From: Myxococcales bacterium
GTDB taxonomy: Bacteria > Myxococcota_A > Polyangia > Polyangiales > GCA-016699535
Assembly (NCBI GenBank): GCA_020633325.1
Contig: JACKDX010000001.1
Coordinates: forward strand, 1,587,301-1,651,300
Length of the DNA stretch: 64,000 bases
Direction of reading: 5' to 3'
The stretch's first letter is position 1; the number at the start of each line of letters is the position of its first letter. Position numbers and translations under genes: made by a program. Positions 16,392-50,894 of this stretch are shown here, one piece after another. The notes below the pieces were generated by a model. That model was not told the DNA's origin and searched no databases. It saw nothing but the letters and a program-made list of their open reading frames with translations.

Positions 16392-17525
16392 ATGCCACGA
16401 CTTTTAGCCTCAGCCGTTGAACGCGTAGAGCGTGCCATCCACGAGATCCAAGCGGGCCGCATGGTGATTTTGGTGGATGACGAGGACCGCGAGAACGAGG
16501 GGGACTTGTGCATGGCCGCCGATCAAGTCACACCCGAATCGATCAATTTCATGGCCCGCTACGGGCGTGGACTCATATGCTTGGCGTTGGCTGAGGAGGC
16601 TGTTCATCGCTTGAGGTTGCCCATGATGGTGCGTGATAATCGATCGCCGTTGGGCACGGCATTTACGGTATCCATCGAGGCGAAGGAAGGTGTGACCACG
16701 GGTATTAGCGCGCACGACCGTGCCCATACCATCCGAACTGCGGCGTCGGCCGATTGCAAAGCGGAAGACCTGGTGAGCCCTGGCCATGTCTTCCCTCTGT
16801 GCGCCAAGCCCGGGGGAGTTTTGCAACGCGCGGGACAAACTGAAGGCTCGGTGGACTTAGCGATGCTTGCAGGCCGTGCACCCTCGGCTGTGATTTGCGA
16901 AATCATGAATGAAGACGGGACCATGGCCCGATTCGCTGAGTTACAACAGTTCGCTGAGACGCACGGACTCCATCTTTTGTCGATTGCAGATGTCGCGACA
17001 TACCGTCTGCGCCATGAGTCCATGGTGCGTAGAGTGAGGGGCGCAGAGGTGCCCTCTGCAAGTGGCAAAATGTGGCGGGCGCATGTGTACGAGACGAAGG
17101 TAAAAAGCCGCCAACTTGTCGCGATGACATTGGGCAGTATTGACAATAGTCCCACGCTCGTCAGGGTGCATACTGGCAGCGCGCTTTTGGATGTTTTTGG
17201 GGCCAGGGCCCCGGGGCGCCTTCTCTCGCATGATGCCGTTCGACAGATTGAAAGCGAGGGTCGCGGGGTGTTCTTGTTCTTGCCCAGTCCTGACGATCTA
17301 TTAACCGAGCTTGAACGATACGAACAGGCATCCGGTTCAACCCCGATGTCCGAGGCCCAGGACCGCTTAAGCGTACTTCGAGAATACGGACTTGGTGCCC
17401 AAGTGTTGGCGGACTTAGGCCTTTCTCATATTCGGCTACTGACCAATCGCCCGCGACGCATTGCGGGGCTGGATGCCTTTGGCCTTCAAATAGTCGAAGA
17501 AGTTCCTCTGGTTCATGTATCCTAG
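16392..17525 (+). CDS. ribB: 3,4-dihydroxy-2-butanone-4-phosphate synthase fused to a degenerate GTP cyclohydrolase II-like domain (RibBX type)
   Basis: DHBP synthase motifs ILVDDEDRENEGDL, GLICLAL and SGHVFPL. The C-terminal half aligns with RibA (LVRVH..., EGRG, LLTN). It reads TGSALLDVFGARAPGRL where RibA has SECLTGD...RCDCG. Confidence 0.88.
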   Translation: MPRLLASAVERVERAIHEIQAGRMVILVDDEDRENEGDLCMAADQVTPESINFMARYGRGLICLALAEEAVHRLRLPMMVRDNRSPLGTAFTVSIEAKEGVTTGISAHDRAHTIRTAASADCKAEDLVSPGHVFPLCAKPGGVLQRAGQTEGSVDLAMLAGRAPSAVICEIMNEDGTMARFAELQQFAETHGLHLLSIADVATYRLRHESMVRRVRGAEVPSASGKMWRAHVYETKVKSRQLVAMTLGSIDNSPTLVRVHTGSALLDVFGARAPGRLLSHDAVRQIESEGRGVFLFLPSPDDLLTELERYEQASGSTPMSEAQDRLSVLREYGLGAQVLADLGLSHIRLLTNRPRRIAGLDAFGLQIVEEVPLVHVS

Positions 17526-17532
17526 GCCCGTC

Positions 17533-18030
17533 ATGGGACAGCAAACTTCCATCAAGCGGGTCGAAGGCACATTTGACGTGGCGCCCCGTTCGCGCTTTGC
17601 CATTGTGGCCTCGCGCTTCAATCAAGAGGTGGTAGAGCGGCTCCTAGAGGGTTCGATCGATGCGCTGATTCGACATGGCGTAGACCGCACGCATGTTACG
17701 GTGGTCAGTGTGCCAGGAGCATGGGAGATTCCCTTCGGTTGCGAGCACGTCGCACGGCGAAAAAACATCTCGGGAATCGTAGCGGTAGGGGCCGTCATAC
17801 GGGGGGAAACCTCGCATTTTGAGCGGGTAGCCGCCGAGTCCATCTCTGGCTGCGCACGCGTCATGGGTAAGCACGGGGTGCCGATCGGGCTTGGCATACT
17901 TACGACCGAATCCCTTGCGCAGGCCATGGCCCGCGCCGGCGGCTCGATGGGAAATAAGGGCTGGGAAGCTGCGCTGAGCGCATTGGAAATGGCGTCTCTG
18001 GCAGCACGGCTTGCAGGCAGCAATACATAA
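17533..18030 (+). CDS. ribH: 6,7-dimethyl-8-ribityllumazine synthase
   Basis: Motifs FAIVASRFN, VPGAWEIP and GAVIRGETSHFE. Start set to the internal ATG (MGQQTS...). Confidence 0.9.
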   Translation: MGQQTSIKRVEGTFDVAPRSRFAIVASRFNQEVVERLLEGSIDALIRHGVDRTHVTVVSVPGAWEIPFGCEHVARRKNISGIVAVGAVIRGETSHFERVAAESISGCARVMGKHGVPIGLGILTTESLAQAMARAGGSMGNKGWEAALSALEMASLAARLAGSNT

Positions 18031-23832: not shown

Positions 23833-24720
23833 CTACGATGCCGGGTGATCAAGCGTAGGGATACGCTTTAAGATGGCGTCGAGTTCGTCATAGCTCCCGT
23901 AAGATATGGAGATGCGTCCGCGCCCATGCCGATCGATGACGGCGACTTTCGTGCCCATCGCGCGCGAGAGACGCGTCTCAAGATCGCGAACATTGGCCGA
24001 GGCGTTAATCGAGCGCATCCCAGTTGCTCTCGGTGGCTCGGTCGCCCGGCGAACCTCCCGCTCGGTCTCCCGAACGCTCCATCGTCTGATCACGGCCTCC
24101 TTGGCCATGGTCTGCATCTGTTCCTGGCTGCTTAGCCCCAAAAGCGCACGCCCATGGCCTTCTGTTAGCTCTCCAGTTTCGAGCCTGCTCAGCACTGCGG
24201 GCGGCAATTTCAGAAGGCGAACCGCGTTCGCAATGGTTGACCGGTTTTTGCCGATCCGTTTTGCCATGGACTCCTGCGTATGCCCGAAGTCTTCGAGCAG
24301 CCTCTGAAACGCCCGCGCGGTCTCGACGGGCCCGAGCTCTTCGCGTTGAATGTTCTCGACGAGCGCGGCTTCAAATGCTTGTTTATCGGTAAGCTCACGT
24401 ACAAATACCGGCACCTTGAGCATGCCGGCACGCTGAGCGGCACGCCATCTCCGCTCGCCCGCAACGATGTTGTAACCGCCTTCAACCCGCTTGCGAACAA
24501 GAAGCGGTTCCAGTATGCCAAGCTCCCTAATCGATTCTGCGAGTTCCTCAAGCGCACTATCGTCAAAGAGCCCGCGGGGCTGATGATGGCTGGGATAAAG
24601 ATCCTCCACCGGGAGCTGTAGCGTGCTACCAGCTGTGCCCGGCGAAGACGCCTGGGGAAGCAACGCATCGAGCCCGCGCCCTAAGGGCCGTCGTTTTGGA
24701 GCTTTTGCCGGATCCATCAT
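23833..24720 (-). CDS. parB: chromosome partitioning protein ParB
   Basis: ParB box GERRWRAAQRAG, an HTH region and a C-terminal dimerisation region. TAATG overlap with parA. Confidence 0.93.
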   Translation of the reverse strand: MMDPAKAPKRRPLGRGLDALLPQASSPGTAGSTLQLPVEDLYPSHHQPRGLFDDSALEELAESIRELGILEPLLVRKRVEGGYNIVAGERRWRAAQRAGMLKVPVFVRELTDKQAFEAALVENIQREELGPVETARAFQRLLEDFGHTQESMAKRIGKNRSTIANAVRLLKLPPAVLSRLETGELTEGHGRALLGLSSQEQMQTMAKEAVIRRWSVRETEREVRRATEPPRATGMRSINASANVRDLETRLSRAMGTKVAVIDRHGRGRISISYGSYDELDAILKRIPTLDHPAS

Positions 24721-25493
24721 TAGGCCGCCGCCCGTGGCGTCGGGCCGCTTAGGATTTCGCGCGCCAAGTTGAGGTAGCCGGCGGAGCCTTTGGAGGCCGC
24801 ATCGTAAAGGATGATAGGCTTTCCGTAGGAAGGCGCTTCGGCGAGCCGGATATTGCGCGGTATAACAGTGTCGTAAACATGAAAATGTTTTCGAAGTTCG
24901 TTGGCCACCTCTGATGACAAGTTGCTCCTTGGGTCAAACATGCAGAGAAGTACCCCGTCAATACGCAAACTCGGATTGAAAGATCCGCGTACCCTCTCGA
25001 CGGTGTTCATGAGTTGGGAGAGCCCTTCGAGCGCGTAGTACTCGCATTGCATCGGCACCAGCACCGCATCGGCGGCGACGAGCGCGTTTATGGTGAGGAT
25101 TCCCAGGGACGGGGGGCAGTCGATGATGATGTAGTCGTATCGACCGCGCAGGGCGCTGACGATTTCCTTCAGGCGCGAGGAACGATCCTCGACGTTAGCA
25201 AACTCGAGCTCAATGGCAGCCAGGTCCGCTGAGGCCGTAATCAGTTCCAGATTTGGCAAGTCCGAAGGCACGATGGCTTCATCCAGCCCCAGCCCGCCTT
25301 GCAGAAGCCCATAGGTCCCCTCAAGGCCCCCTTTCGGGTCTCGGCCTAGTCCGCTGGTGGCGTTGCCCTGGGGATCCATGTCGATGAGAAGCACCCGCTG
25401 TTCAGCCACCGCCAGGCTCGCCGAGAGGTTGACGGCTGTCGTGGTTTTGCCGACCCCGCCTTTTTGGTTGGCGATCGCAACAACGTAGGTCAC
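24720..25493 (-). CDS. parA: chromosome partitioning ATPase ParA/Soj
   Basis: Deviant Walker A NQKGGVGKTTT, plus IDMDPQGN and IIIDCPPSLG. Confidence 0.95.
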   Translation of the reverse strand: MTYVVAIANQKGGVGKTTTAVNLSASLAVAEQRVLLIDMDPQGNATSGLGRDPKGGLEGTYGLLQGGLGLDEAIVPSDLPNLELITASADLAAIELEFANVEDRSSRLKEIVSALRGRYDYIIIDCPPSLGILTINALVAADAVLVPMQCEYYALEGLSQLMNTVERVRGSFNPSLRIDGVLLCMFDPRSNLSSEVANELRKHFHVYDTVIPRNIRLAEAPSYGKPIILYDAASKGSAGYLNLAREILSGPTPRAAA

Positions 25494-28589: not shown

Positions 28590-28955
28590 TTAATCCTCAG
28601 GGTCAGCGACGAATAATTCGTCGCCCTCGATGCTGAAAGCAAGCGGACGAAGAAAGGCGCCCCTACATGGTCCGCCTTCGCAATAGCCATCCTCTGGGCG
28701 ATAGATGGCGCCGTGGGTCGAGCACAGTAGGTGGGTACCTTCCCTGTTCCAGAACAGTCCCGAACCCGCATCAAGGGGAATGGGCAGATGTTGACACTCG
28801 TTCAGATAAGCTCGCAGTGTTCCGTTCTGGTCGCGGAGTACGATGGCGGAGCGCGGCTGGCCGTACCGACCGGGACTCAGCCTCACCGCCATGGCCTCCT
28901 TAAGCCCTAGGGTGGCCGGCTGGCAGGCGTAACCGGGTGAAATTGGCGCATTCAC
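28590..28955 (-). CDS. small Rieske [2Fe-2S] domain protein
   Basis: Rieske ligand boxes CQHLP (CxH) and CSTHGAIY (CxxH). 121 aa. ATGA overlap with the phosphoesterase gene. Last gene of the sulfur operon. Confidence 0.85.
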   Translation of the reverse strand: MNAPISPGYACQPATLGLKEAMAVRLSPGRYGQPRSAIVLRDQNGTLRAYLNECQHLPIPLDAGSGLFWNREGTHLLCSTHGAIYRPEDGYCEGGPCRGAFLRPLAFSIEGDELFVADPED

Positions 28956-29647
28956 GGGAATAATGGCTCCTTTTTCCCGCGATCGAGGTAGACATTTTTT
29001 GCCGAAACCGATATAATACGCCGCTCCGGCAGCGCCAGCGCCGTCAACTCGCCCCCGTAGACACAGCCGGTGTCTAGTCCGTAGGCCCAGGGATGCCGTT
29101 GAAGGCCCCGACGCGCGTCATGGCCAAACACCACGCATTCGGGCCCTTCCCATGTGCTGGCCCAAGGCACCCCCATTGTGGCAAGGGGGCTCGGCGTTCC
29201 ATCGGGCAAGATACTGCGCAGGGTAGTCAGCTGCGCGGGGTCCTGGGCTTCCAAAGGTATACCGGGCACGATCCCCGCATGCACCACCGCCACCCCATAC
29301 GTTTCGAGCCGCAAGTAGAATGGCTTCTGCCGAAGCCAAGCAACATCGTCTCTGCTGAGCGATTGGGCGGCAGTGACATGGCTCTTTGTCGCACGAGGTG
29401 GAGGCTCTCCTTTATCTAAGTGTTGTCGGATTTCGAGCACACGGACATCATGGTTTCCAAGTACGGTGCGGGCGCTTAATGAGCGCGCCATTTCGACTAC
29501 GCCTTGCGAATCAGGCCCCTTGGCGACCAAGTCTCCAACAAACACCACACTATCTCCCGGTTGGTACTCACATCGCTCAAGGAGGATGCGCAGCTCTTCT
29601 GCACATCCGTGGACATCGCCGATAATGAGAGCGCGTGAAGCAGCCAT
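28952..29647 (-). CDS. calcineurin-like metallophosphoesterase (ApaH/PrpE-like)
   Basis: Motifs IIGDVHGC, FVGDLVAKGPD, LGNHD, HAG and GHD. The start codon overlaps the aprB-like stop by 1 nt. Confidence 0.85.
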   Translation of the reverse strand: MAASRALIIGDVHGCAEELRILLERCEYQPGDSVVFVGDLVAKGPDSQGVVEMARSLSARTVLGNHDVRVLEIRQHLDKGEPPPRATKSHVTAAQSLSRDDVAWLRQKPFYLRLETYGVAVVHAGIVPGIPLEAQDPAQLTTLRSILPDGTPSPLATMGVPWASTWEGPECVVFGHDARRGLQRHPWAYGLDTGCVYGGELTALALPERRIISVSAKNVYLDRGKKEPLFP

Positions 29648-29988
29648 TAGAGGTTCGGATTAAAGGGTGGGGTGCCAGTTGCGGGGGTCTCGTATCGTGT
29701 TTCCGTACCATCCCGGCGCCGAATCCTCCAGACCGTCTTCGGTTTAATGGCGCGGCCGCGCAGCGTGACGCCCTGCACAATGACCGCCGTTGGGAGTTGC
29801 ATATGGATCGCTTGCGTGGGGCACACTTTCACGCAGGCTGCGCAGTCCCAGCATTCTGCATTGCTTCGAATCGTGGCCTTGCGGTGCGGCAACAAAATCA
29901 TGAGATCTCCGGGGCAATCCCGGACGCACATAGGCTCCTCAGCCCGTCCACATCCGTTGCATAGCTCGTGATCGACAAATATCCCCAT
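29647..29988 (-). CDS. aprB: AprB-like adenylylsulfate reductase beta subunit (2x[4Fe-4S] ferredoxin), short form
   Basis: Cluster motifs CNGCGRAEEPMCVRDCP (Cx2Cx7Cx3CP, the spacing I recall for AprB) and CWDCAACVKVCP. 113 aa, so it lacks the long C-terminal tail of classical AprB. Directly downstream of the aprA-like gene. Confidence 0.75.
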   Translation of the reverse strand: MGIFVDHELCNGCGRAEEPMCVRDCPGDLMILLPHRKATIRSNAECWDCAACVKVCPTQAIHMQLPTAVIVQGVTLRGRAIKPKTVWRIRRRDGTETRYETPATGTPPFNPNL

Positions 29989-29997
29989 AACAACATT

Positions 29998-31743
29998 CTA
30001 CGCGTGCCGAATGACCGCGCCGTCGTCCAGCGCCGGCAACACGACCTCCAACGCTTCACGTTCCACTGGCCGCTCGCGCATCTCGATACGACCATCCGCA
30101 TGTTGGATGCTGTTGACGAACACCATCCACCGCGCATCATCGCGCATGGGATAATCAAGTCTTTCTTGATAGCAATGCCAACGCGTCTCCTTGCGGTGCA
30201 GCATATGTTCCACCAACACCATGGCGACGGTCACGCGATCGATGACTTCGTGTGCGTGCATGAGCCCATAGCTGCTCTCGGCACAAAGCGAGCGCAAATC
30301 ATCCGACAGCCGTCTGAGATGCAGACGCGCTAGCGTGAGCTCACCTTCCGAGTATCCGTAATCGACGGCAATGCCCCCGGCGTACTCATCCATGATTTTC
30401 TGTAAGCGCTCTTCGAGGTCTTTGGGGTCCACTCCTTCTTTTTGGGCCAGCGGGGCGAATACCCGCTGCTGCTCTTTGACGAGCTCGGTGGTTGAGATTG
30501 GCACAAGCGTGCCTCTTCGCGCCTCGTTGATCATGTCGCGCACAGCCAAGACCGCCTCCGCCCATGCGCCGGGCGCGTACTTTTTCGGGCAGCCTCCCGT
30601 AACGTCGCCCGCCGCCCATAGACCTTCACGGGTCGTGCGCCGCCGGGTATCGACCCAATAACCGCTAAGGCCATGGCCGCCAACGACCAAAGGTTCGCCG
30701 CCCGTGACCTCGATGGGTGCCATATGACCGTTGACTTTTGCGTAATACGCCTCATCCGACATGATCATAGCAGCCGCAGGGGCCATCGAGAGGTATGCGG
30801 CAATGGTCCATTCGAGCCGCTTCGGATCGACGCCCCGCAAATCCAGATAGCAAGGGCCGCGACCTGCGCGCCTCTCGAGGAGCGTCGCATACAAGCGGTC
30901 TTGGGTTGTCATGCGGATGCCGCCCAGCTCGCCATAGTATTTGTCGAGGTACGCCTCGCCCTTGGCGTTGATCTGAGGGGCGCGAAGCCACTGGGCGATT
31001 TCGCCTGTCGGTGCAATAGCATCCTTGATGCGCATGGGAATAAAGCGGAACTCAAAGGAGGTCATCTCGGCACCGGTGCGAATCCCCATCGCCAGCCCTG
31101 CGCCAGTATTGTAAGGCGAATACCACATCCGATGTGCGGCCGAGCCAGGGTTGTTCGGGCGATAAAGGCCCGCGGCCCCTCCCGTACATACCAAGACGGT
31201 CTTGGCGCGCACGACATAGAACGCACCATCACGCACGCCAAACCCATAAGCGCCCACGATGCGCCCCTCATGCGTCGCAAGACCGGTGACGTTCACGCGG
31301 TTGAAGATGCGCGCTCCAGACGCCTCAGCGCGCTTAGCCATTATGGGCTTGATACGTTCGCCAAAAATTTTTATGGATGCGCGACCGCGTTTCAACGGTC
31401 GACCCATTTCATCGCGCACGAGCGGAAGGCCCCAGCTTTCGACACGGTGGACCTGCTCATTGAGTTGCCGCGCCATGCTTAGCACTAGATCATCGCGCAC
31501 GACGCCGTGCGTATCGTGTTGGGTATAACGCAAAAATGATTCTGGCGTTTCGCCATGCGTCAGATACGCATTGAGTGCACTGATGCCGGCTGCCAGGCAT
31601 CCGCTACGGTAGATGTGAGCTTTCTCTAAGACGATCACATCGAGGTCCGGCGCTTGCTCAGACGCGTCCACTGCGGCCATGCATCCGGCAGCACCGCCGC
31701 CAATGATGAGCACATCGCACGAGAGCTCTACGGTGTCGCTCAT
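29998..31743 (-). CDS. aprA: AprA-like adenylylsulfate reductase alpha subunit (FAD flavoprotein)
   Basis: ORF trimmed to MSDTVELSCDVLIIGGGAAGC (ATGA overlap with mec). It matches my recollection of Archaeoglobus AprA along its length: LEKA..RSG..A.G.SA.N.Y, TGGA, RFIP.R.KD, LQKIMDEYAGGI and RKETRW...Y....DYP. Confidence 0.82.
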   Translation of the reverse strand: MSDTVELSCDVLIIGGGAAGCMAAVDASEQAPDLDVIVLEKAHIYRSGCLAAGISALNAYLTHGETPESFLRYTQHDTHGVVRDDLVLSMARQLNEQVHRVESWGLPLVRDEMGRPLKRGRASIKIFGERIKPIMAKRAEASGARIFNRVNVTGLATHEGRIVGAYGFGVRDGAFYVVRAKTVLVCTGGAAGLYRPNNPGSAAHRMWYSPYNTGAGLAMGIRTGAEMTSFEFRFIPMRIKDAIAPTGEIAQWLRAPQINAKGEAYLDKYYGELGGIRMTTQDRLYATLLERRAGRGPCYLDLRGVDPKRLEWTIAAYLSMAPAAAMIMSDEAYYAKVNGHMAPIEVTGGEPLVVGGHGLSGYWVDTRRRTTREGLWAAGDVTGGCPKKYAPGAWAEAVLAVRDMINEARRGTLVPISTTELVKEQQRVFAPLAQKEGVDPKDLEERLQKIMDEYAGGIAVDYGYSEGELTLARLHLRRLSDDLRSLCAESSYGLMHAHEVIDRVTVAMVLVEHMLHRKETRWHCYQERLDYPMRDDARWMVFVNSIQHADGRIEMRERPVEREALEVVLPALDDGAVIRHA

Positions 31744-32237
31744 AGGACCTGCATAACGGATTCCGTAAACCCATTGCTTCCTGCCACATGCACCCACAGT
31801 TTGCGATCCACGATGTTGCCGCCAAGCACGCTCATCACCAAAAACGCACACGGCCACATCAACTGGCCGTGAGCGGCAAACGTGGCTGCGTCTTCCTCGG
31901 AAAAATACGCGCCCGCATCGCAGTGCGAGTGATAAATGACCTTGATCGGGCGTCCTGTTGCGTTGCCCTCTTCGAAGCGCCGGGCTGCCCTAAGGGCATT
32001 AATCTTGAAATAGGTTTTTGAAGTGCGAGGAAATCGCTCTGGATCAAGGGCGTGGTATTTGTCCGCTTCGTTGACCTCAAAAATCGCCTCATCCACCAAG
32101 AGCGGTTGCTCCAAAGGCCCGCTCAAAAACCCGCAGCACTCGCTCGGATAGGCCCGAACGGCCTCTTCCTCGATTGCCGTCATGACCGAGCGCGGCAGAG
32201 TCAGGTTGCCATGAATCCACGGTGTCTCACCACTCAT
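31740..32237 (-). CDS. mec: JAMM/MPN+ metalloprotease (Mec-like)
   Basis: ORF trimmed to MSGETPW... Full JAMM motif: E in PSECCGF, then HSHCDAGAYFSEED (HxHx7Sx2D). The start overlaps the cysM end by 11 nt. Confidence 0.85.
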   Translation of the reverse strand: MSGETPWIHGNLTLPRSVMTAIEEEAVRAYPSECCGFLSGPLEQPLLVDEAIFEVNEADKYHALDPERFPRTSKTYFKINALRAARRFEEGNATGRPIKVIYHSHCDAGAYFSEEDAATFAAHGQLMWPCAFLVMSVLGGNIVDRKLWVHVAGSNGFTESVMQVL

Positions 32238-33162
32238 AATGTTTCTCCCAGCGCATGGGCGCGAAGTATCGGTCCCCCCGATCAGGCGCAATGGTGACAA
32301 TGCAGCCACGTCCGATACGCTCGGCGAGTTGTAGTGCGCCGCAAACGTTCGCGCCGGTCGAATGTCCAACATGCAATCCCTCCTCAGCCGCCAGTCGATC
32401 GGCCATGTCCCACCCGGCGTCGGTCCCGATACGCAAGAGCTCATCCGGCATTCTCGCGTCGTAAATATCGGGAATCATGGATGTTTCCATGTGTTTCAGC
32501 CCTTCAAGTCCGTGCAACGCTTCATCCGGCTCAAGGGCGACACATCGAATGCTCGAGCGGTATTCTTTCAGCCTGCGGCTTATTCCCATGAACGTCCCTG
32601 TGGTGCCAAGACCCGTGACGAAATGCGTCAAGCGATTCCCAACCTGCTCGATGATCTCTTGTCCGGTGCCGAGGTAGTGCGCCTTCGGATTCGAGGGGTT
32701 GCTATATTGATCGGGATAGAAATACGTCTCGGGTGAGGCGTCCACCAGCGCCCGACAGTGGTGAATGGCGCCGTCAGATCCCTCCATGGGGTCGCTGAAA
32801 ATCAGTTCTGTGCCAAATGCTTTGGCAATGTCCTTGCGCGCCTCAGAAACATTGGACGGCATCACGAGTTTGACGCGGTAACCCAAAGCCGCCCCAAAGA
32901 GTGCGTACGCCACGCCGGTGTTTCCGCTGGTGGCATCAATGAGTGTCTTCTGATGGTCGAGCCGCCCATCGAGCACGGCGTCGCGCATCATTTGTAACGC
33001 AGATCGGTCTTTCACCGAGCCGCCAGGATTTCTATATTCAAGCTTCAGATAGAGTTCCACATCCGGGAAGTTCTTTCCCACGTGCCGCAGCCGCACCAAC
33101 GGCGTCTCTCCCACGGCTTCGGTGATGTTACGCATCTGACGCGTGCGCGCAGGGTCGATCAT
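32227..33162 (-). CDS. cysM: PLP-dependent cysteine synthase, CysM-like
   Basis: PLP lysine motif NPGGSVKDR, plus TSGNTG and GLGTTGT. It sits between cysO-like and mec-like genes, the same gene neighbourhood as in M. tuberculosis. Confidence 0.88.
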   Translation of the reverse strand: MIDPARTRQMRNITEAVGETPLVRLRHVGKNFPDVELYLKLEYRNPGGSVKDRSALQMMRDAVLDGRLDHQKTLIDATSGNTGVAYALFGAALGYRVKLVMPSNVSEARKDIAKAFGTELIFSDPMEGSDGAIHHCRALVDASPETYFYPDQYSNPSNPKAHYLGTGQEIIEQVGNRLTHFVTGLGTTGTFMGISRRLKEYRSSIRCVALEPDEALHGLEGLKHMETSMIPDIYDARMPDELLRIGTDAGWDMADRLAAEEGLHVGHSTGANVCGALQLAERIGRGCIVTIAPDRGDRYFAPMRWEKHYEW

Positions 33163-33168
33163 GACAGG

Positions 33169-33459
33169 TCAACCATTCCCGGCTAAGCCTCCCGCAATGG
33201 CCGGCACGATGCTTAATGTATCGCCATCCTTAAGCGGTGTATCGAGATTATCAAGGAATCGGATGTCCTCTTCGTTCGCATAGATGTTAACAAATCGGCG
33301 TACGCCCTTCTCATCGCACAATCGATCCTTGACTCCGGGGTGGTGCTTTTCCAGATACTCAATCGCTTCTTTGACGTTGGCCCCGTCGGCCTGAACGATG
33401 TCCTGTCCGCCGGTGAGCGTCCGAAGTGGTGTAGGAATTCTTACGGTAATTGTCGCCAT
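33169..33459 (-). CDS. cysO: CysO-like MoaD/ThiS-family sulfur carrier with C-terminal GG followed by a 5-residue extension
   Basis: Resembles M. tuberculosis CysO as I recall it (IPT.LR..TGGQ...RFVNIY.N.ED.RF....DGD...I.PA.AGG). It ends ...PAIAGGLAGNG. AAGGA RBS upstream. Confidence 0.82.
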   Translation of the reverse strand: MATITVRIPTPLRTLTGGQDIVQADGANVKEAIEYLEKHHPGVKDRLCDEKGVRRFVNIYANEEDIRFLDNLDTPLKDGDTLSIVPAIAGGLAGNG

Positions 33460-33471: not shown

Positions 33472-34404
33472 CTAGTTTTCTTGAAAATACGTGTCCAAAC
33501 TAAAATATCGCTCTCCTGTGTCGCAGAGCACGGTGACTACCACGTGGTTTTCACCAAGCTCTTCAGCGAGCCTTGAGGCGATGGTCACATTGGCCCCGGC
33601 GCTGATGCCAACAAGAAGGCCTGCTTTTTCTGCAAGGGCTTTTTTTGCGCGATGCGCTTCGTAATCGGAGACACGTCGAATCTCATCCACCACGGTGGGA
33701 TCGAAGTTTCCCGGCACGAACCCCGCGCCAATCCCCTGGATTTTTGTTGGGCCTGGCTCGCCGCCCGATAATACGGGGCTGGTTTCGGGTTCCACAGCAA
33801 CTATCCTGCACGACGGGTAGTTTCGCTTAAGGACGCGGCCGACGCCCGTGATGGTACCTCCGGTCCCAACGGCGGACACAAAGGCATCCACCGGCTGTCC
33901 CTCGAGCGCACGCATGATTTCCTCCGCCGTGGTCTCGGCATGGGCAGCGGGGTTGGCGGGATTATCAAACTGCATGGGCATGAAAGCCCCGCGGCTCGCG
34001 ACGATATCCTTGGCCGCCTCGATGGCACCTTCCATCACCCGCTCGGCCTGGGTGAGGACTATCTCGGCGCCATACGCCTGCAATAACGCACGCCGCTCAA
34101 GCGACATACTCTCCGGCATCGTGAGCACCAAATGGTAACCCTTTACTGCGCAGACCAATGCGAGGCCGATGCCGGTGTTGCCGCTTGTTGGCTCGACAAT
34201 GGTATCCCCAGGACGGATTTTTCCCTCGCGTTCCGCCACTTCGATCATGGACAGACAAATGCGGTCCTTGACCGAGCCGCCAGGGTTCACGTGTTCCGCT
34301 TTTGCCCAAAGCGTTGCGGCGCCTTGAGGAGTGCAATGGGTCAGTTCCAAGAGCGGCGTATTGCCGATTAGCTCTAATACGGACTGTACTACGGGTGCGG
34401 CCAT
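33472..34404 (-). CDS. cysK: cysteine synthase A (O-acetylserine sulfhydrylase)
   Basis: Motifs IGNTPLL, NPGGSVKDR, PTSGNTGIGLA and GTGGTITG. The start lies 3 nt after the Rrf2 stop. Confidence 0.9.
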   Translation of the reverse strand: MAAPVVQSVLELIGNTPLLELTHCTPQGAATLWAKAEHVNPGGSVKDRICLSMIEVAEREGKIRPGDTIVEPTSGNTGIGLALVCAVKGYHLVLTMPESMSLERRALLQAYGAEIVLTQAERVMEGAIEAAKDIVASRGAFMPMQFDNPANPAAHAETTAEEIMRALEGQPVDAFVSAVGTGGTITGVGRVLKRNYPSCRIVAVEPETSPVLSGGEPGPTKIQGIGAGFVPGNFDPTVVDEIRRVSDYEAHRAKKALAEKAGLLVGISAGANVTIASRLAEELGENHVVVTVLCDTGERYFSLDTYFQEN

Positions 34405-34407: not shown

Positions 34408-34860
34408 TTATATGACGTAGTTCAGGCGTCGCTCAGAGGCGCGACGAATCCCTAGCTGTTCGGCGTTTTGGGCCAGTTGTTCCATAGTGACGGCGTTAAA
34501 GCAGTTCTCGATTCGCTCTGAGAGTTCACGGAACGCGTGAATGATCACTTGACTCGAGCTTCCCGAGGATCTGGCTTTCGGCGACTCGGCCACGAGAGCG
34601 AGGGGCCCTTCAACTGCTCTCACCACATCCCCAACGCTGATGGCAGAGGCGGGACGCGCCAATCGATAGCCGCCACGCGGGCCGCGTTTCGAGGTCACCA
34701 AACCCGCACGCTTCAGGTCTTGGCATATCTGTTCCAAAAACCGCGACGGAATGGCCTGGCGCGCTGCAATGTCTTTGATCTGAGAGGCCTCTCCCTGGGT
34801 ATGAAAGGCCATGTCAAAGACGGCTTGTACGCCGTATCGGCCTTTGTTGGACAGTTTCAT
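34408..34860 (-). CDS. Rrf2-family transcriptional regulator without Fe-S cysteine ligands (CymR-like)
   Basis: ORF trimmed to MKLSNKGRYGVQAVFDMAFH, the typical Rrf2 N-terminus. Winged HTH IPSRFLEQICQDLKRAGLVTSKRGPRGGYRL. There are no cysteines in the region where IscR and NsrR bind their cluster. Confidence 0.82.
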   Translation of the reverse strand: MKLSNKGRYGVQAVFDMAFHTQGEASQIKDIAARQAIPSRFLEQICQDLKRAGLVTSKRGPRGGYRLARPASAISVGDVVRAVEGPLALVAESPKARSSGSSSQVIIHAFRELSERIENCFNAVTMEQLAQNAEQLGIRRASERRLNYVI

Positions 34861-34869
34861 CGCCGCTCC

Positions 34870-34898
34870 AAGATAGCGCGGCGCACCCTGCTGGTCAA
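34870..34898 (-). promoter_or_regulatory. candidate sigma-70-type promoter of the sulfur operon
   Basis: The minus strand reads TTGACC (34898..34893), 17 nt, TATCTT (34875..34870), inside the AT-richer 84-nt spacer after metH. It would give a very short or absent leader for the Rrf2 gene. Confidence 0.3.
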
Positions 34899-34944
34899 CC
34901 AAACCCTATCGGGTATGTCAAGAATAAATAAACGTCGGATAATA

Positions 34945-37900
34945 CTATGTTTTGCGTTCTGGTTCGTATCCGAGGCTGGGTCTTAGCCATCGTTCGGTCT
35001 CTTCGAGAGAAGTCCCCTTCCTGTGGGCGTATGCCTGCACCTGATCGCGATCGATGAGCCCCACCGCGAAATAATGGGCCTTGGGATGGGCAAGATAGAT
35101 GCCGCTGACGCTGGCTGCCGGCCACATCGCGAAGTTCTCGCTAAGCGTGATTCCAATCTCAGGGGCGTTCAACAACGAAAAAAGTTTGGGTTTCTCGCTG
35201 TGGTCGGGGCATGCGGGATAACCAAATGCCGGACGGATCCCGCGGTACTTCTCCGCGATCAGCTCTTGGGGACTGAATTGCTCTTCTAGCCCGTATCCAC
35301 AGTCACGACGTGCGCGCTGGTGCAGATACTCCGCGAACGCTTCGGCCAGTCGATCGGCGAGGGCTTTGGCAATGATGGCATTGTAATCGTCGAGGGCGTC
35401 ACGATATTCCGCAGCAAGTTCTTCGGCGCCTATGCCGGCCGTGACTGCAAACGCCCCAACATAATCCGCGATACCTGTCTCTTGGGGAGCGACAAAATCC
35501 GCCAAACAAAAATAGGGCTCATCCTCGGGCTTGGCTTGCTGTTGCCGCAGCATGCAAAACCTGAGCAATTCTTCTTGGCTATCAGTATGACTCACTACAA
35601 TATCGTCGCCATCAGCGTTCGCGGGCCAAAAGCCGTAAACCCCGCGCAGCGTGAAGCGGCGCTCGCGGATGATGCGATCAAGTAACTGACGTCCATGGTC
35701 GTAGAGTTCTCGTGCGGCTGCACCATAGGTGGGATGCTCTAAGATCTTGGGAAACTTCCCCTTGAGCTCCCAAGCAGTGAAGAAAAAAGTCCAGTCAATG
35801 TAGGGGACTAAATCTTCCAATGTGACATCGTCGACCACGCGACGGCCGAGGAAACTCGGTACGGCTATATCCTTCTCGGCCCAAGTGATGGCCGCTGGAT
35901 TTTCTCGTGCGATGGAGTAGGGCAGCTGGGGTTTGCGTCGTTTCTGCTCATAGAGCCGAACGAGCCTGGCTTGCTCCTTGCGGTTGTTTTCTTCAAACGC
36001 GGCCTGCCGCTCGGGCGAAAGAATATCCGCAAGGACGCCCACGACTAAAGAGGCATCGAGCACGTGCACGGTGTTGGCGTCGTACCTGGGAGCAATCTTT
36101 ACGGCCGTGTGCTGCCGGCTGGTCGTGGCCCCCCCAATCAGTAGAGGCAACTCGAATTTCTGACGTGCCATTTCATCAGCAACGTTGACCATTTCATCGA
36201 GCGAGGGGGTGATCAACCCGCTCAGGCCGATGGCGTCCGCCGCCACGTCTTTTGCAGTTTGGAGAATTTTTTCAGCCGGCACCATCACGCCAAGGTCCAC
36301 GACATCATAGTTGTTGCATCCCAAGACGACGCCGACAATGTTCTTTCCAATGTCGTGAACATCACCCTTGACGGTGGCCAAGACGATTTTCGGACGGGCT
36401 TTGGCGACGCCGCCGACTTTCTCTTTCTCCATGAAAGGCTCTAAGTAAGCCACCGCGCGTTTCATCACGCGCGCGCTCTTCACCACCTGGGGCAGAAACA
36501 TCTTTCCCGACCCAAAAAGCTCACCCACGACTTTCATACCGTCCATCAATGGGCCCTCGATGACATGTAGGGGCTTAGGATGCTTCTGCCGCGCCTCCTC
36601 CGTGTCGGCTTCTATGAAATCCACGATACCATGCACCAAAGCGTGCGAGAGTCGCGCTTCGACAGAACCTTCTCGCCAAGCGAGATCGAGGGTCTTCTTC
36701 TTGCCGATGGATCTAGCGCTTTCCGCAAAGGTAACCAGCCGTTCGGTTGCATCGGGGCGCCGATTAAATATGACATCCTCCACCTTGCTGAGCAGGTCTT
36801 CGGGAATGTCCGCGTACACCGCAAGTTGACCCGCATTGACGATGCCCATGGTCATGCCTGCTGCAATGGCGTGATACAAGAAGGACGCATGCATGGCCTC
36901 GCGTACCGTGTCATTGCCGCGGAAGGAAAACGAAAGGTTGCTGACGCCGCCACTGATTTTGGCGTGCGGGCACGCTGCTTTGATACGTCCAATTGCCTGA
37001 ATATAGTTTTTCGCGAAGTCGTTGTGCTCAGCAATGCCGGTGCCAATGGCTAGAATGTTGGGGTCAAAGAAAATGTCTTGCGCATTGAAGCCAACTTTCT
37101 CCGTAAGCAGGGAATAGGCTCGCTTGCAAATGGATACCTTCCTATCCACCGTCTCGGCTTGCCCCTCTTCATCGAACGCCATCACCACGACAGCGGCACC
37201 GTATCTCTTAACGAGCTTGGCCTTTTCGAGAAAATCGGCCTCACCCTCCTTGAGTGATAACGAGTTGACGACGCCTTTCCCCTGCACGCATTTGAGCCCC
37301 GCTTCAATGACCGACCACTTCGAGCTATCGACCATAATGGGAAGCCGCGAAATCTCCGGCTCCGACGCGATGAGATGCAAAAAAAGCGTCATCTCCTTCT
37401 CTGAGTCGAGCATGCCCTCGTCCATGTTGACATCAAGAATATTGGCACCACTACGGACCTGGTCGAGTGCGACGGCCAAAGCGTCGGAATGTTTGCGCTC
37501 TTTGATCAGTCGTGCAAAACGTTTGGACCCGGTCACATTGGTTCGCTCGCCAATCAGGACAAAGTTGGAGTCCTCTCGAATCACAAACGGTTCGAGACCG
37601 CTGAGACGCGTGAGGTGTGAGACAGGCATCTCGGCAACGTCGCGAGGCTTTATCCCCCGACATGCATTTTTTATAGCGGCGATGTGTTCGGGTGTTGTCC
37701 CACAACATCCCCCGACCAGATTGACCAGGCCATCTTCAGCCAATGCTTTTAACTGCATGGCTGTCGTGGCTGGCGTCTCCTCATACTCACCAAAGGCATT
37801 GGGCATCCCCGCGTTCGGGTAACAGCTGATATAGCAAGTGGCCAATCTGCTGAGTTCAGCAATGTAAGGCCGCATGTCCTTTGCGCCGAGCGCACAGTTG

Positions 37901-38625
37901 ACCCCGACACTCCATGGGTTGGCATGGGCAATGGAGGCCCAGAAAGCTTCAATGGTTTGCCCCGAGAGTGTGCGCCCGCTTTTATCCGTAATGGTTACCG
38001 ACACCATGATCGGTAAGTAGACCTTCTCGCGCTCACAGACCTCCTGGATGGCAAAGAGCGCAGCCTTGGCATTGAGGGTGTCAAAGATTGTCTCGACCAT
38101 GAGCAAGTCGACACCACCGTGAATGAGTCCCCGAACCTGTTCTTCGTAGGCCAAACGCACCTCATCAAACGTCACGGACCGGTATGCAGGGTCGTTTACA
38201 TCAGGCGACAAGCTGAGGGTCTTGTTGGTAGGACCGATGGCGCCCGCCACAAAACGAGGCTGCGCCGGATCCTGCTCGGTGACGATGAGCGCACAGCGCT
38301 TGGCCAGCTTGGCCGCCTCGACGTTCAGGTCGTATGCGAGATCCTGTAAGCCATAATCGGCCTGAGCGATGCGGGTGGCCGTGAAGGTGTTGGTTTCAAT
38401 GATGTCGGCGCCCGCGGTGAGAAATTGTGTATGAATGCCGGCGATAATATCGGGCTGGGTCATGACCAGCACATCGCTATTCCCTTTGAGCGCATGGGTG
38501 TGCGTACTGAATCGTTTTCCGCGAAACGCTGACTCGTCCAAGGCATGCCGCTGAATCATGGTGCCCATGGCGCCGTCGAGTATCATCAGCCGCTCTTTGA
38601 GCGTTGCTTCTAGATCTTGCTGCAT
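34945..38625 (-). CDS. metH: cobalamin-dependent methionine synthase
   Basis: 1226 aa with all modules: Hcy-binding N-terminus ([11 protein letters not shown]), pterin-binding module, B12-binding GDVHDIGKN (DxHxxG) and a C-terminal AdoMet reactivation domain. Confidence 0.95.
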
Positions 38626-40172: not shown

Positions 40173-41897
40173 ATGACTTTTACGGAAGCAGCGGTGGCCG
40201 TGCTTCGCCATGCCGGACGGCCGCTCCATTACAAAAAAATCACCGAACTGGCGATTGAAAACAACCTACTTTCTCACGTCGGGAAAACCCCAGAGGTGAC
40301 GATGAGCGCCAGGCTGGCGATGCTGGCCAAGAAGCCCGATGGAGGGCTTGAGGTGGTCAAGGTTAAGCCGGGCGTCTTCGGCCTCAAGGAATTCGGAGAC
40401 GCTATACTGACGCGAGCTTCGGCAGACGGAGCCGAGGGAGAGGATATAGAAGTGATGATGCAACCCCAAGAAGAAGACCGTTCAGTCTCGGAAAATCAAG
40501 AGGATAACGGCCAAACATCGAACGCGGCGCCAGCCCAACCAGAATCGGGTGCGCAGCTCTTCCCTGACGAGGATGACGATGATGAACCGATTTTGGCGGG
40601 TCTTGATGAGGGGCGTGCAGATCCCAAGCGCGGTCGGCGCCGCCGGCGTCGCCGCCCGGGCCGAGGTGCATCGAGCGCAGGGCAGCCCACGGGCGCTGTG
40701 CGTGCGCGTGAATCCGGCCAGGGCAATGGTGGCCGCTCGCCCCAGAGTCGAGAGCAAAGAGATCGATACGATGTGGCTGGTGATTGGGATCGTCTGCCCG
40801 AGGATAACGACTTAATTGGAAAAAGCCTTTCAGACGCTGCGCACGCCGTCATGGCGGCAGGCACGACGCGGCAGGGCTCGACGCTTGAGCGCATTGCACA
40901 TCAACTCGTTCAAAAGGGCCGCCTTCAGGGGGACCCGCAGGCACTTGTGCCCACGGTCGCCGCGGCGCTTCGCGCGGACAACGCATGTCGAACCCAAGCT
41001 CAAGAGCGCTTGAGATTTCGCGTCCACGCCAATCTCGTCTGGCTCACAGATTGGCTACTGCCGACGGACGCTATTCGCCTAGAGCGCGACGTCACGCGGG
41101 GAGCAGAACAACAACGCCTTGCTGTGCGGAAGGTGTTCTTAAAGCAACTCAGAGCGTTGCCCTTGACGGGATTTGCTGAATTCGTGGCATCATGGCTGAA
41201 CGCAGAAGGCGTCACGTCGGTGCGTGCGATTCGCCGCCCGGGAAGCTCCGCCTCTCAGCTACACTTTGCCGGGGTGCTCCACCAAGGGCAAAGCGAGATG
41301 CACCTTGCGGTGGTGATGCTCAGGGACGGTCAAGACATAGACAAGAGTTTGGTCGAACAAACCCGGGGGGCGCTACATCACTATGGCCAGGCCAATGTTG
41401 CATGGCTGGTGACGCTCGGCCAGGTACGTCCAGACGCGAGGCAGGAAGGTAATGTCAGTGGCGTTGCACCGGCGGTCCTGTTTGACGGCCTTGAATGGGC
41501 TGAAGCCCTCGAAAATCGAAGCATCGGTCTCTCTAAGACCTATGTTGCTCTCACGGTGCCCCAGTTTGAGTTGCTCGCGGCCTTGAGCGGGGCGGTGGAG
41601 CCGGACACACAAGCCCTCGAGTCCGAAGAAGGGCGGGAGGGGCGCAGCGGATGGGCACAGCAGTCCTCGGGACCGAGGAGACGTCGAGGAGGACGCGGCT
41701 TTCGGCGAGATCAGGCGCAGTCCGATGATGACGGCGATAACGATGGACAAGAAGCTGCTTCTTCCGATATTGATCGCAACGGGCAAGAGCCACCGCTGCT
41801 CGACGAGGATGAGTCCGAGAACGACAATGGCCCCTATGCCTCGGACGAGAGTGCTGACGGCGACGATGATGACGTCGATCAGGACGACTCCAACTGA
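40173..41897 (+). CDS. HARE-HTH domain protein with Arg/Gly-rich and acidic disordered regions and an Mrr-like (restriction endonuclease fold) domain
   Basis: N-terminus MTFTEAAVAVLRHAGRPLHYKKITELAIENNLL.HVGKTPE.TM.A.L...VKPGVFGLKEF is a HARE-HTH signature. Residues about 330-440 (FAEFVASWLNAEGV...HLAVVMLRDG...VAWLVTLG) resemble an Mrr_cat core. The tail is poly-acidic (DGDDDDVDQDDSN). AAGGA RBS upstream. Confidence 0.78.
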   Translation: MTFTEAAVAVLRHAGRPLHYKKITELAIENNLLSHVGKTPEVTMSARLAMLAKKPDGGLEVVKVKPGVFGLKEFGDAILTRASADGAEGEDIEVMMQPQEEDRSVSENQEDNGQTSNAAPAQPESGAQLFPDEDDDDEPILAGLDEGRADPKRGRRRRRRRPGRGASSAGQPTGAVRARESGQGNGGRSPQSREQRDRYDVAGDWDRLPEDNDLIGKSLSDAAHAVMAAGTTRQGSTLERIAHQLVQKGRLQGDPQALVPTVAAALRADNACRTQAQERLRFRVHANLVWLTDWLLPTDAIRLERDVTRGAEQQRLAVRKVFLKQLRALPLTGFAEFVASWLNAEGVTSVRAIRRPGSSASQLHFAGVLHQGQSEMHLAVVMLRDGQDIDKSLVEQTRGALHHYGQANVAWLVTLGQVRPDARQEGNVSGVAPAVLFDGLEWAEALENRSIGLSKTYVALTVPQFELLAALSGAVEPDTQALESEEGREGRSGWAQQSSGPRRRRGGRGFRRDQAQSDDDGDNDGQEAASSDIDRNGQEPPLLDEDESENDNGPYASDESADGDDDDVDQDDSN

Positions 41898-49284: not shown

Positions 49285-49755
49285 ATGAAGTGCCCCTTTT
49301 GTAGTTCGCTCGAAAATCGCGTGATGGATTCGCGCCTGTCAGGCGGAGGGGAGGTCACGCGCAGACGAAGGGAGTGCGAAGGCTGCGGTCGTCGCTATAC
49401 GACCTATGAGCGCCTAGAGCAGATATACCCGCTCGTCATTAAAAAGGATGACCGCCGCGAAACATTCGATCGTCTGAAAGTCGTTTCGGGATTGCGAAAA
49501 GCGTGCGAGAAGCGGCCTGTGTCTTCTGAAGCAATCGAGGCGCTGGTTGACGATCTCGAGAAGCAGCTTGTTGAAATGGGTGAAAAGGAAGTCCCCACTG
49601 CTGTGATTGGCGAAAAAATCATGTCCAAGCTCAAAGAACTGGATCAAGTGGCTTATGTGCGCTTTGCCAGTGTATATCGCAGTTTTAAGGATATTCACGA
49701 GTTCATGGGCGCACTTTCGCACCTGCTCGATGGCGCGGAGAAAACGGAGACGTGA
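49285..49755 (+). CDS. nrdR: transcriptional repressor NrdR
   Basis: Zinc ribbon MKCPFC...[12 protein letters not shown] followed by an ATP-cone. Confidence 0.95.
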
Positions 49756-50882
49756 CGGTTTCGGCATTTGACAGGCGCATGATGGCACTGGCGCTCAAAG
49801 AGGCCAAAAAGGGCACCCCAAGCCCCAATCCTCATGTGGGAGCGGTGATCACCAGAGAGGGAAAATTGCTAGCCGAAGGATTTCATGCGCGCGCCGGTCT
49901 CGCGCATGCAGAAATTGTCGCGATGGACAAAATCGGCGCCGAATGTCGTGGCGCTACCCTGTACGTGACGCTCGAGCCTTGCAATCACCACGGACGTACC
50001 GGCCCTTGCACCGACGCCATTCTCGCGGCGGGGATTGAACGGGTGGTGATCGGATGCTCAGACCCCATGCCGCATGTGCCGGGTGCAATCGAGAAACTCG
50101 AGCAGGCGGGCATCTCGGTAGAGGTCGGTGTTTTGGATTATCAAGCGCGCCAGTTGGTGGCGGGTTTTGTTAAACACCGGCGAACAGGGCTTCCGCATGT
50201 CACCCTTAAAGCCGCTGTAAGTCTGGATGGCCGCATCGCGAGCCGCTCGGGACAGGCGCGATGGCTCACGGGAGATAAGGCGCGGAAAGAAGCGCACGCC
50301 TTGCGCGCAGCCGTCGATTGTGTGCTTGTGGGGGTACGAACGGTGCTGGCCGACGATCCCGAACTGACGGTACGCCACGTGCCCGGATCGCAACCCGTCA
50401 GAGTCGTGTTGGACTCGAATTTACGTACCCCAACCAGCGCGCGCCTTTTTCAAGGGCGGGGATCGGCGGTGTGGATCATGCACGGCGCCCATGCGCCAGA
50501 AGGCAAGAAGCAGGATCTCACGCAACTCGGCGCGCAGCTTTTTATGATGCCCGAAAGTCCCCACGGTCTAAGCGTACCTTCGGTGCTGCGGCTCTTGGGA
50601 GACCGCGGGATGCAATCGGTGATGGTTGAGGGCGGCGCAGCTGTGTACAACAGTTTCTTGCGACAGGAATGCGTAGAGCGCATGGCGATATTTGTCGCGC
50701 CCGTATTGATGGGGGACCCACAGGCGCCGAGCCTCGCGGCATTTCGGGAGGTGGTCGGCATGGGGGAAGTGACCCGACTCGGGGAAGTTCATGTCCGACG
50801 GTTTGGTCCCGATGTACTAATTGAAGGCGATATACTAGAACGCCTCTCCTCGATGCATGGCCATGGCGCACATGCGGACTGA
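49752..50882 (+). CDS. ribD: bifunctional riboflavin biosynthesis deaminase/reductase RibD
   Basis: Deaminase zinc motifs HAEI and [11 protein letters not shown], plus a reductase domain. GTGA overlap with nrdR. Confidence 0.93.
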
Positions 50883-50894
50883 CGAGGGCTCAAA

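Follow-up and report, generated by a model that had tools for sequence, protein, structure and literature searches.

The closest described systems are the dissimilatory adenosine 5'-phosphosulfate (APS) reductases, AprBA, of Archaeoglobus fulgidus (structures 1JNR/2FJA) and D. gigas (3GYX), and an enzyme of a methanogen. The latter, the reductase for 3'-phosphoadenosine 5'-phosphosulfate (PAPS) of Methanothermococcus thermolithotrophicus (MtPAPSR), has been shown to be a soluble, assimilatory enzyme derived from AprBA (Jespersen and Wagner, 2023; PMC10322725). Here we describe a pair of genes, alpha and beta, related to both. The pair lies in a stretch of 64,000 nucleotides (the window) from a Myxococcales bacterium of the order Polyangiales (assembly GCA_020633325.1, contig JACKDX010000001.1, positions 1,587,301 to 1,651,300). 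The two genes very probably encode a soluble assimilatory sulfonucleotide reductase of the MtPAPSR family that makes sulfite for cysteine synthesis. Four observations carry this reading: membership of the family, conservation of the catalytic residues, PAPS-type substitutions in the pocket around the ribose 3' position, and an assimilatory context both in the operon and across the family. The two genes are as follows.

29998-31743, minus strand: alpha subunit, 581 aa, a flavin adenine dinucleotide (FAD) flavoprotein of the AprA/fumarate-reductase superfamily, MtPAPSR-type (NF005331)
29647-29988, minus strand: beta subunit, 113 aa, two-[4Fe-4S] ferredoxin-like protein, a tail-less AprB homologue

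Characterized relatives and comparable systems

MtPAPSR shares with the dissimilatory APS reductase its alpha2beta2 architecture, FAD and two [4Fe-4S] clusters (PMC10322725). It was shown to reduce PAPS at 0.114 U/mg, far above the 0.007 U/mg measured with APS, and the reverse reaction was not seen (PMC10322725). The enzyme is strongly inhibited by 3'-phosphoadenosine 5'-phosphate (PAP), and its genes co-occur with a gene for a PAP phosphatase (PMC10322725). Methyl viologen served as the electron donor in the assay, and the authors suggested ferredoxin as the physiological donor (PMC10322725). Specificity was ascribed to the loop formed by residues 104-123 (K120, R121, S122), and residue Q145 of the A. 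fulgidus enzyme would clash with the 3'-phosphate of PAPS (PMC10322725).

The window pair resembles MtPAPSR in family model, in a short beta (104 aa in the methanogen) with eight cysteines and a relay tryptophan, in its catalytic residues, in having Arg and Ser in place of A. fulgidus E141 and Q145, and in an assimilatory context without Qmo or AprM. It differs in belonging to a bacterium (Myxococcota/Polyangiales) rather than a methanogen, in its loop (RGRAS as opposed to RGKRS, the methanogen R121 being replaced by Ala), and in clustering with cysK, cysO, cysM and mec and not with genes for ATP sulfurylase, APS kinase or a DHH-type PAP phosphatase. With dissimilatory AprBA the window pair shares the fold, FAD, two [4Fe-4S] clusters and the order alpha then beta; the N5-sulfite adduct chemistry would also be shared, judging from the conserved equivalents of N74, W234, R265 and H398. 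In contrast to AprBA, however, the window pair lies in an anabolic operon, its E141 and Q145 equivalents are replaced, alpha is about 60 residues shorter, and beta lacks a C-terminal tail of about 40-55 residues.

Two further systems are comparable in their gene content. In C. acetobutylicum, the genes CA_C0102-CA_C0110 form a sulfate-assimilation operon of the CymR regulon with cysC, a gene annotated as 'adenylylsulfate reductase subunit A' and a ferredoxin gene (PMC4845359). The likeness lies in the combination of reductase and ferredoxin genes and in the Rrf2-type (CymR) regulon, with CA_C0104 likened by description only. The same architecture was found in two Clostridium loci of our survey (L039 and L060). 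In the clostridial operons, cysC, cysDN and sulfate ABC-transporter genes stand beside alpha and beta, whereas the window operon has cysteine-synthesis genes instead. The second system is the mec-cysO-cysM thiocarboxylate pathway of cysteine synthesis in Mycobacterium tuberculosis (O'Leary et al., 2008, cited in PMC3141025). A comparable trio, encoding a JAB protease, a ThiS-like carrier and CysM, lies immediately upstream of alpha in the same operon. In M. tuberculosis, sulfonucleotides are reduced by the unrelated, thioredoxin-dependent CysH, whereas in the window an AprBA-derived enzyme is coupled to the trio. CysH (PF01507) shares its pathway role with alpha and beta and is unrelated to them in sequence; no PAPS_reduct domain (PF01507) was matched in either protein in Pfam searches. 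A literature search of limited scope returned nothing usable on the alpha/beta enzyme in Myxococcota or on the Wolinella HcyS system.

Family membership of the two subunits, alpha and beta

For both subunits the best solved structure is PDB 8A8O, the 1.45 Å crystal structure of the M. thermolithotrophicus enzyme. Alpha aligns with 8a8o_A over residues 4-562 at 50% identity (E 7e-182), compared with 38% identity and an E-value of 1e-84 for A. fulgidus AprA (1jnr_A). Beta aligns with 8a8o_C over residues 3-100 (E 8e-17), with D. gigas AprB (3gyx_B) at E 2e-15 and with A. fulgidus AprB (1jnr_B) at E 3e-12. The nearest relatives of alpha, at 70-84% identity, are annotated as belonging to metagenome-assembled genomes of Myxococcales or Polyangiales. 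A complete genome, CP064980.1 (GCA_016699535.1), encodes an alpha of 78% identity in the same order of genes.

By profile score, the curated NCBIfam models part the MtPAPSR-type and dissimilatory families cleanly. The cut-off of NF005331 is 557 bits, that of TIGR02061 (dissimilatory aprA) 641.75 bits and that of TIGR02060 (aprB) 135.65 bits. Five MtPAPSR-type proteins pass NF005331 and fail TIGR02061: the window alpha (728 and 338.5 bits, respectively), MtPAPSR itself (885 and 397), a member from Nitrospirota (L012; 814 and 470), one from Ruminococcus (L079; 967 and 336) and one from an uncultured bacterium (L037; 695 and 352). A. fulgidus AprA behaves in the opposite way, failing NF005331 (452 bits) and passing TIGR02061 (1171 bits) as the only one of the six proteins tested to do so. 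The window beta fails TIGR02060 with 70.8 bits, its match covering profile positions 1-108 of 132. The matches of alpha lie far beyond chance, with E 7e-182 against a solved homologue and a score of 728 bits in a curated equivalog model. NF005331 already captures the window alpha, under the label 'adenylyl-sulfate reductase subunit alpha', which is possibly misleading. A succinate dehydrogenase or fumarate reductase (Sdh/Frd) flavoprotein was considered and rejected, the matches being at superfamily level only (PF00890, PF02910) and the score with NF006131 being 297 against a cut-off of 587.

The initial annotation of this DNA had presented the pair as an orphan AprBA, made up of an AprA-like flavoprotein and a tail-less 113-aa AprB-like ferredoxin. 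Both open reading frames (ORFs) are indeed present on the minus strand, and the motifs quoted for alpha were all recovered: DVLIIGGGAAGC (residues 10-21), LQKIMDEYAGGI (447-458), and RKETRW (517-522) with DYP after it (530-532). Alpha contains the Pfam domains FAD_binding_2 (PF00890) and Succ_DH_flav_C (PF02910), and beta contains 4Fe-4S dicluster domains. The two cluster motifs described for beta are likewise in place, with eight cysteines in the expected spacing at positions 10/13/21/25 (Cx2Cx7Cx3CP) and 46/49/52/56 (Cx2Cx2Cx3CP), and Trp47 is present. The identification as classical AprBA did not hold, since the cut-offs of both dissimilatory models were failed; the nearest relative is a characterized enzyme with a different substrate, PAPS. 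The pair is best classed, on its alignments and profile scores, as a divergent member of the MtPAPSR family, with 50% identity, a variant substrate loop and different operon partners. The family itself has evolved from dissimilatory AprBA, and the quaternary structure of the window enzyme is probably alpha2beta2.

Beta had also been described as ending soon after its ferredoxin core, which is correct as to the tail but not as to the region that precedes it. A segment of about 50 residues C-terminal to the core is retained, and the terminal tail alone is missing. Past the second cluster motif, the window beta has 56 residues, compared with 52 in its M. thermolithotrophicus counterpart, 109 in D. 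gigas AprB and a median of 54 in the family. Alignment with AprB (150 aa in A. fulgidus and 166 aa in D. gigas) extends to about AprB residue 108, with some 6 residues of the window protein beyond. In the dissimilatory enzyme, the long C-terminal tail of AprB reportedly wraps around AprA, a description said to go back to Fritz et al. in 2002.

In public records (ENA and Logan contigs; L001 11843-12097, corresponding to about 29647-29901 of the window, minus strand), beta is called as a protein of 84 aa. This call begins at an internal Met, so that the first Cx2Cx7Cx3CP motif is lost. The 113-aa form, with its start at 29988, aligns with the M. thermolithotrophicus beta from residue 3.

Active site and substrate loop

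Residues were mapped in a MAFFT alignment and are given in A. fulgidus numbering. The positions N74, Y95, W234, Y235, R265, G274, R317 and H398 correspond to N58, Y73, W207, Y208, R238, G247, R283 and H357 of the window alpha. The catalytic, FAD-site and adenine-stacking residues of APS reductases are all conserved in alpha.

The positions that contact the ribose are different. E141, Q143, W144 and Q145 of A. fulgidus are replaced by R119, R121, A122 and S123 in the window and by R118, K120, R121 and S122 in MtPAPSR. The window loop therefore reads R119-G-R121-A122-S123, and the two residues that bind the APS ribose in A. fulgidus, E141 and Q145, have given way to Arg and Ser, which the PAPS enzyme also has there. 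R119, R121 and S123 match the methanogen loop in kind, and A122 differs from its R121. V273 and L278 have become T246 and Q251, again as in MtPAPSR. A comparison of substrate-binding residues, proposed with the initial annotation as a check on its AprBA assignment, thus gave a divided answer: the catalytic residues are conserved, and those that discriminate between APS and PAPS (E141, Q145) are changed. The loop is a constant feature of the lineage, RGR[A/G]S being found in 120/120 close relatives. Across the family, four loop types (A. fulgidus positions 141-145) were distinguished.

RG[KR]RS (M. thermolithotrophicus type): M. thermolithotrophicus, Firmicutes, Ilyobacter; cysC directly upstream
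RGRWN: Nitrospirota, Hadarchaeota, Leptospirillum; sat, no cysC
RGNRN: Ruminococcus and other Clostridia; cysDN, no cysC nearby
RGR[A/G]S: the clade of Myxococcota to which the window belongs; no cysC within 10 kb in the 16 loci examined

These loop types track the adjacency of cysC, sat or cysDN, which suggests a switch between APS and PAPS specificity on one scaffold. Among non-Myxococcota loci, an APS-kinase gene lies within 7 kb in 13/17 cases with Ser at the Q145 position and in 1/56 cases with another residue (Fisher p 3.6e-10, a value that ignores shared ancestry). An APS-kinase gene is present in 14 loci, and in 13 of them this cysC lies directly upstream of alpha, ending a few bases from the alpha start or overlapping it. 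The MtPAPSR-type family is thus probably not uniformly specific for PAPS.

Operon context in Myxococcota

The pair had been regarded as an orphan. It forms instead the distal part of a compact rrf2-cysK-cysO-cysM-mec-alpha-beta operon that is conserved across Myxococcota. In the window, the genes upstream of alpha are as follows.

34945-38625, minus strand: metH
34408-34902, minus strand: Rrf2-family regulator, CymR/IscR-like (PF02082, 4e-37; below the cut-offs of the CymR and IscR equivalog models)
33472-34404, minus strand: CysK, O-acetylserine sulfhydrylase (TIGR01139, 401 bits, above the cut-off of 351)
33169-33459, minus strand: ThiS/MoaD-family sulfur carrier, CysO-like, ending in GG (PF02597, 5e-18)
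32227-33162, minus strand: CysM-like pyridoxal phosphate-dependent cysteine synthase (PF00291; TIGR01138, 327 bits, below the cut-off of 394)
31740-32237, minus strand: JAB/Mov34 metalloprotease, Mec-like, about 165 aa (PF14464 Prok-JAB, 2.5e-15)

The JAB stop codon and the ATG start codon of alpha overlap as ATGA, and alpha and beta are translationally coupled to the cysteine-biosynthesis genes. A spacer of 9 nt separates the alpha stop codon from beta. A 182-kb metagenome contig in ENA encodes the identical alpha protein and has its genes in the same order; the gene call on this public contig gives 165 aa for the JAB protein. Sixteen Myxococcota loci were examined overall, and seven beyond the window were looked up for gene order. 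The core Rrf2-CysK-[ThiF]-ThiS-CysM-JAB-alpha-beta, with a beta of 113-114 aa, is present in 7/7 of these, with Rrf2 missing in L086. The overlap between JAB and alpha recurs with the same coordinates (JAB end 10004, alpha start 10001) in 6/7, and a gap is found in L085. The Rrf2 protein is the probable regulator of the operon.

No comparable constancy is seen 3' of beta. ATP sulfurylase (sat) follows directly in L086 and L087, and nothing in L089 and L090. Other Polyangiales loci (L004-L010) have mostly shadow ORFs or variable genes in this position (a PP-loop ATPase-like and a glyoxalase-like gene, both judged by eye, and a ThiF-like gene), with no conserved downstream partner of beta in L004-L010.

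Pfam scans of the window covered 58 of its 81 ORFs of at least 150 aa (including all of at least 290 aa) and the smaller operon genes. Among the ORFs scanned there was no gene for a Qmo/HdrA-like protein, AprM, Dsr, Sat, an APS kinase or a sulfite reductase, and the matches were otherwise to housekeeping genes only. The reported absence of Qmo and AprM from the neighborhood is in agreement with this result. Five of the scanned ORFs had no Pfam match (four of them 17-31 kb away and one shadow-like), which leaves room for a divergent AprM. A soluble enzyme that uses another redox partner in the absence of Qmo and AprM had been proposed, and the proposal is a reasonable one, as the closest characterized relative, MtPAPSR, is a standalone assimilatory enzyme. 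Rfam models, run over the whole window in search of a riboswitch or another RNA upstream of the operon, gave no match. A scan for promoter and terminator consensus sequences between 28.3 and 39.8 kb gave weak matches only, mostly intragenic, and was uninformative.

In many Myxococcota the operon includes a ThiF gene, which is absent from that of the window; an E1-like activating enzyme for CysO must thus be encoded elsewhere. A gene of 126-171 aa without a Pfam match lies between the genes for the ThiS-like carrier and CysM in L085 (7994-8383), L088 (8070-8585), L089 (8207-8587) and L090 (8211-8594), and is not present in the window operon.

Distribution of the family

One genome for each GTDB species was scanned with a degenerate pattern, and at least 582 loci were confirmed. 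The best 80 of these come from Polyangiales, Nitrospirota, Leptospirillum, many Clostridia, Ruminococcus, Halanaerobiales, Fusobacteria, Thermodesulfobacteriota, Hadarchaeota and Hydrothermarchaeales. For 81 loci, every ORF up to 7 kb from alpha was included in a clustering, and the cluster representatives were annotated with Pfam.

A survey of short AprB forms had been called for, and such forms proved to be the rule: in 75/81 loci the gene directly downstream of alpha is a short beta, with a median length of 111 aa. The other recurrent neighbors, all on the same strand, are a small NIR_SIR-type sulfite reductase (38/81), cysD (34/81), JAB (32/81), cysN (31/81), ThiF (26/81), Rrf2 (25/81), sat (24/81), TusA (21/81), ThiS (20/81), MetY (17/81) and APS kinase (14/81). 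Sulfate ABC-transporter genes, in clusters recognized by eye, also recur. The short beta and the sulfate-assimilation neighbors nearly always accompany the family and are traits of the whole family, not oddities of the window. An alpha-beta fusion in L037 was only apparent, being due to an out-of-frame shadow ORF, and was discarded.

Proposed mechanism

By homology to the A. fulgidus enzyme and MtPAPSR, a catalytic mechanism can be proposed, together with a putative substrate, electron donor and mode of regulation. A soluble low-potential donor would feed electrons into the two [4Fe-4S] clusters of the tail-less beta. The electrons would then pass Trp47 of beta and reduce the FAD of alpha, whose N5 would attack the sulfur of the sulfonucleotide and so release sulfite and a nucleotide. 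The reaction would most likely convert PAPS to PAP and, less likely, APS to AMP. Sulfite would be reduced to sulfide by a sulfite reductase encoded elsewhere, and sulfide could supply two cysteine routes of the same operon, one through CysK and the other through CysO-thiocarboxylate, CysM and Mec. The operon may be under the control of the Rrf2 regulator, whose gene heads the cluster.

PAPS or APS as the substrate

PAPS is probably the substrate of the window enzyme, although the sequence evidence allows only moderate confidence on this point. Besides the Mt-like residues of the ribose pocket, the phylogenetic neighborhood is informative. In a rough neighbor-joining tree, the Myxococcota clade is sister to two loci from uncultured bacteria, L028 and L037, which have RGRGS and RGRAS loops and carry cysC directly upstream of alpha. 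A sister clade that combines RGR[A/G]S loops with an adjacent cysC favors PAPS.

Several points weigh against the assimilatory PAPS reductase proposed here. Two concern the reading as a whole: the only assayed member of the family is the methanogen enzyme, bacterial members being known from genes alone, and neither a sulfite reductase nor an electron donor was found in the 64-kb window. The others concern the substrate. R121, one of the three residues proposed for PAPS specificity in M. thermolithotrophicus, is Ala in the window and either Ala or Gly throughout its clade. In 16/16 Myxococcota loci no APS-kinase gene lies within 10 kb, and there is none among the scanned ORFs of the window. The gene directly after beta in L086 and L087 is sat and not cysC, which fits direct reduction of APS. 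The association between cysC and Ser was computed without correction for phylogeny, and the substrate model of the methanogen enzyme rests on modelled PAPS and not on a bound ligand (PMC10322725).

A different substrate within the same family and the same assimilatory role is the alternative that survives best. The myxobacterial clade may reduce APS directly to AMP and sulfite, in which case sat, alpha and beta would suffice without an APS kinase or a PAP phosphatase. The missing cysC, the sat genes of L086 and L087 and the loss of the methanogen R121 would all be accommodated, and the RGRWN and RGNRN clades, with sat and cysDN, respectively, likewise have no neighboring cysC. These clades, however, have Asn and not Ser at position 145. 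In place of E141 and Q145, which form hydrogen bonds with the APS ribose in A. fulgidus, stand the very Arg and Ser of the PAPS enzyme. T246 and Q251 are likewise of the methanogen type, and cysC lies directly upstream in the sister clade, whose loops are of the same kind. We consider direct APS reduction possible on this evidence, yet rather doubtful.

The downstream phosphoesterase and Rieske genes

Two further genes follow beta in the window.

28952-29647, minus strand: ApaH-like (ALPH-type) metallophosphoesterase, 231 aa (PF00149; PRK00166, 128 bits, below the cut-off of 176)
28590-28955, minus strand: small Rieske [2Fe-2S] protein (CxH...CxxH; PF00355, 1e-9)

The best PDB match of the phosphoesterase is 2qjc (8e-49), and its scores stay below the ApaH equivalog cut-offs. 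The adjoining Rieske protein had been considered as a possible partner of the reductase. Extended to both genes, the idea would be that the two were recruited, the phosphoesterase to serve as a novel kind of PAP phosphatase and the Rieske protein to donate electrons to beta. If so, the locus would be a self-contained PAPS-reduction module in an aerobic myxobacterium, with the long-sought physiological donor of a tail-less AprBA-like reductase. Overlapping stop and start codons link beta to the phosphoesterase (TAATG) and the phosphoesterase to the Rieske gene (GTGA), the same gene order recurs in L009 and L084, and the strong PAP inhibition of MtPAPSR and the co-occurrence of its genes with a PAP phosphatase gene (PMC10322725) would give such a phosphatase a role.

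The wider distribution of the two genes speaks against recruitment, which we regard as improbable. The window, L009 and L084 make up the window's own narrow lineage, and the pair is absent at the other 13/16 Myxococcota alpha/beta loci; even in L084, a gap of 85 nt separates beta from the phosphoesterase. Orthologues of the phosphoesterase at 52-58% identity occur throughout Myxococcota independently of alpha and beta, and the copy in M. xanthus DK1622 adjoins a gene for a Ser/Thr kinase. The phosphoesterase and the Rieske domain are joined in a single chain of 342-351 aa in at least six homologues (P0290, P0303, P0337, P0341, P0344, P0388). The fused gene at 6001-7041 of L093 stands back-to-back with the M24 peptidase gene that is also its neighbor in the window, and alpha and beta are not close by. 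In the genome that contains L085 (P0017), the phosphoesterase orthologue P0319 lies on the same contig as alpha and beta but more than 10 kb away. The homologue and neighborhood searches thus led us to reject the two genes as dedicated partners of a conserved system. They probably form an independent Myxococcota module, sometimes one fused gene, that abuts the operon in this lineage. As to its function, a redox-gated phosphatase is one possibility suggested by the union of a phosphatase with a Rieske [2Fe-2S] protein.

Dissimilatory function and the annotation of aprBA genes

Least likely is a dissimilatory or reverse-acting AprBA whose tail was lost and whose partner, in the membrane or soluble, is a novel one, which would mean sulfate respiration or the oxidation of sulfite to APS: the homology to A. 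fulgidus AprA and AprB (E 1e-84 and 3e-12) and the conserved catalytic residues are compatible with it, but it is already largely refuted by the failure of both TIGR02061 and TIGR02060, the altered APS ribose-binding residues, the lack of Qmo, AprM, Dsr and Sat among the scanned window ORFs, the embedding of the genes in, and their translational coupling to, cysteine-biosynthesis genes, the assimilatory neighbors in 81/81 family loci, and the lack of a reverse reaction in MtPAPSR (PMC10322725).

An assimilatory MtPAPSR-family enzyme has consequences for genome annotation. Calls of aprA or aprB in organisms that are not sulfate reducers (Myxococcota, Clostridia, Nitrospirota) usually denote assimilatory enzymes of this family, and metagenome surveys should leave them out when they count markers of dissimilatory sulfur cycling. 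The window locus itself is an ordinary biosynthetic operon, and the family is widespread in bacteria and archaea.

Other features of the window

A gene at 40173-41897 (plus strand) beside the ddl-metH end encodes a protein of 574 aa that combines a HARE-HTH domain at its N-terminus with a restriction-endonuclease domain (Mrr_cat), and is syntenic in the relatives L001 and L085. The genes parA and parB are located at 23833-25493 (minus strand), about 4 kb from the operon, and the slope of the cumulative GC skew shifts in the region from about 28 to 40 kb. An origin or terminus of replication may lie nearby. Riboflavin genes occur in two groups about 30 kb apart, ribBA and ribH at 16392-18030, and nrdR, ribD and ribE at 49285-51494 (plus strand).

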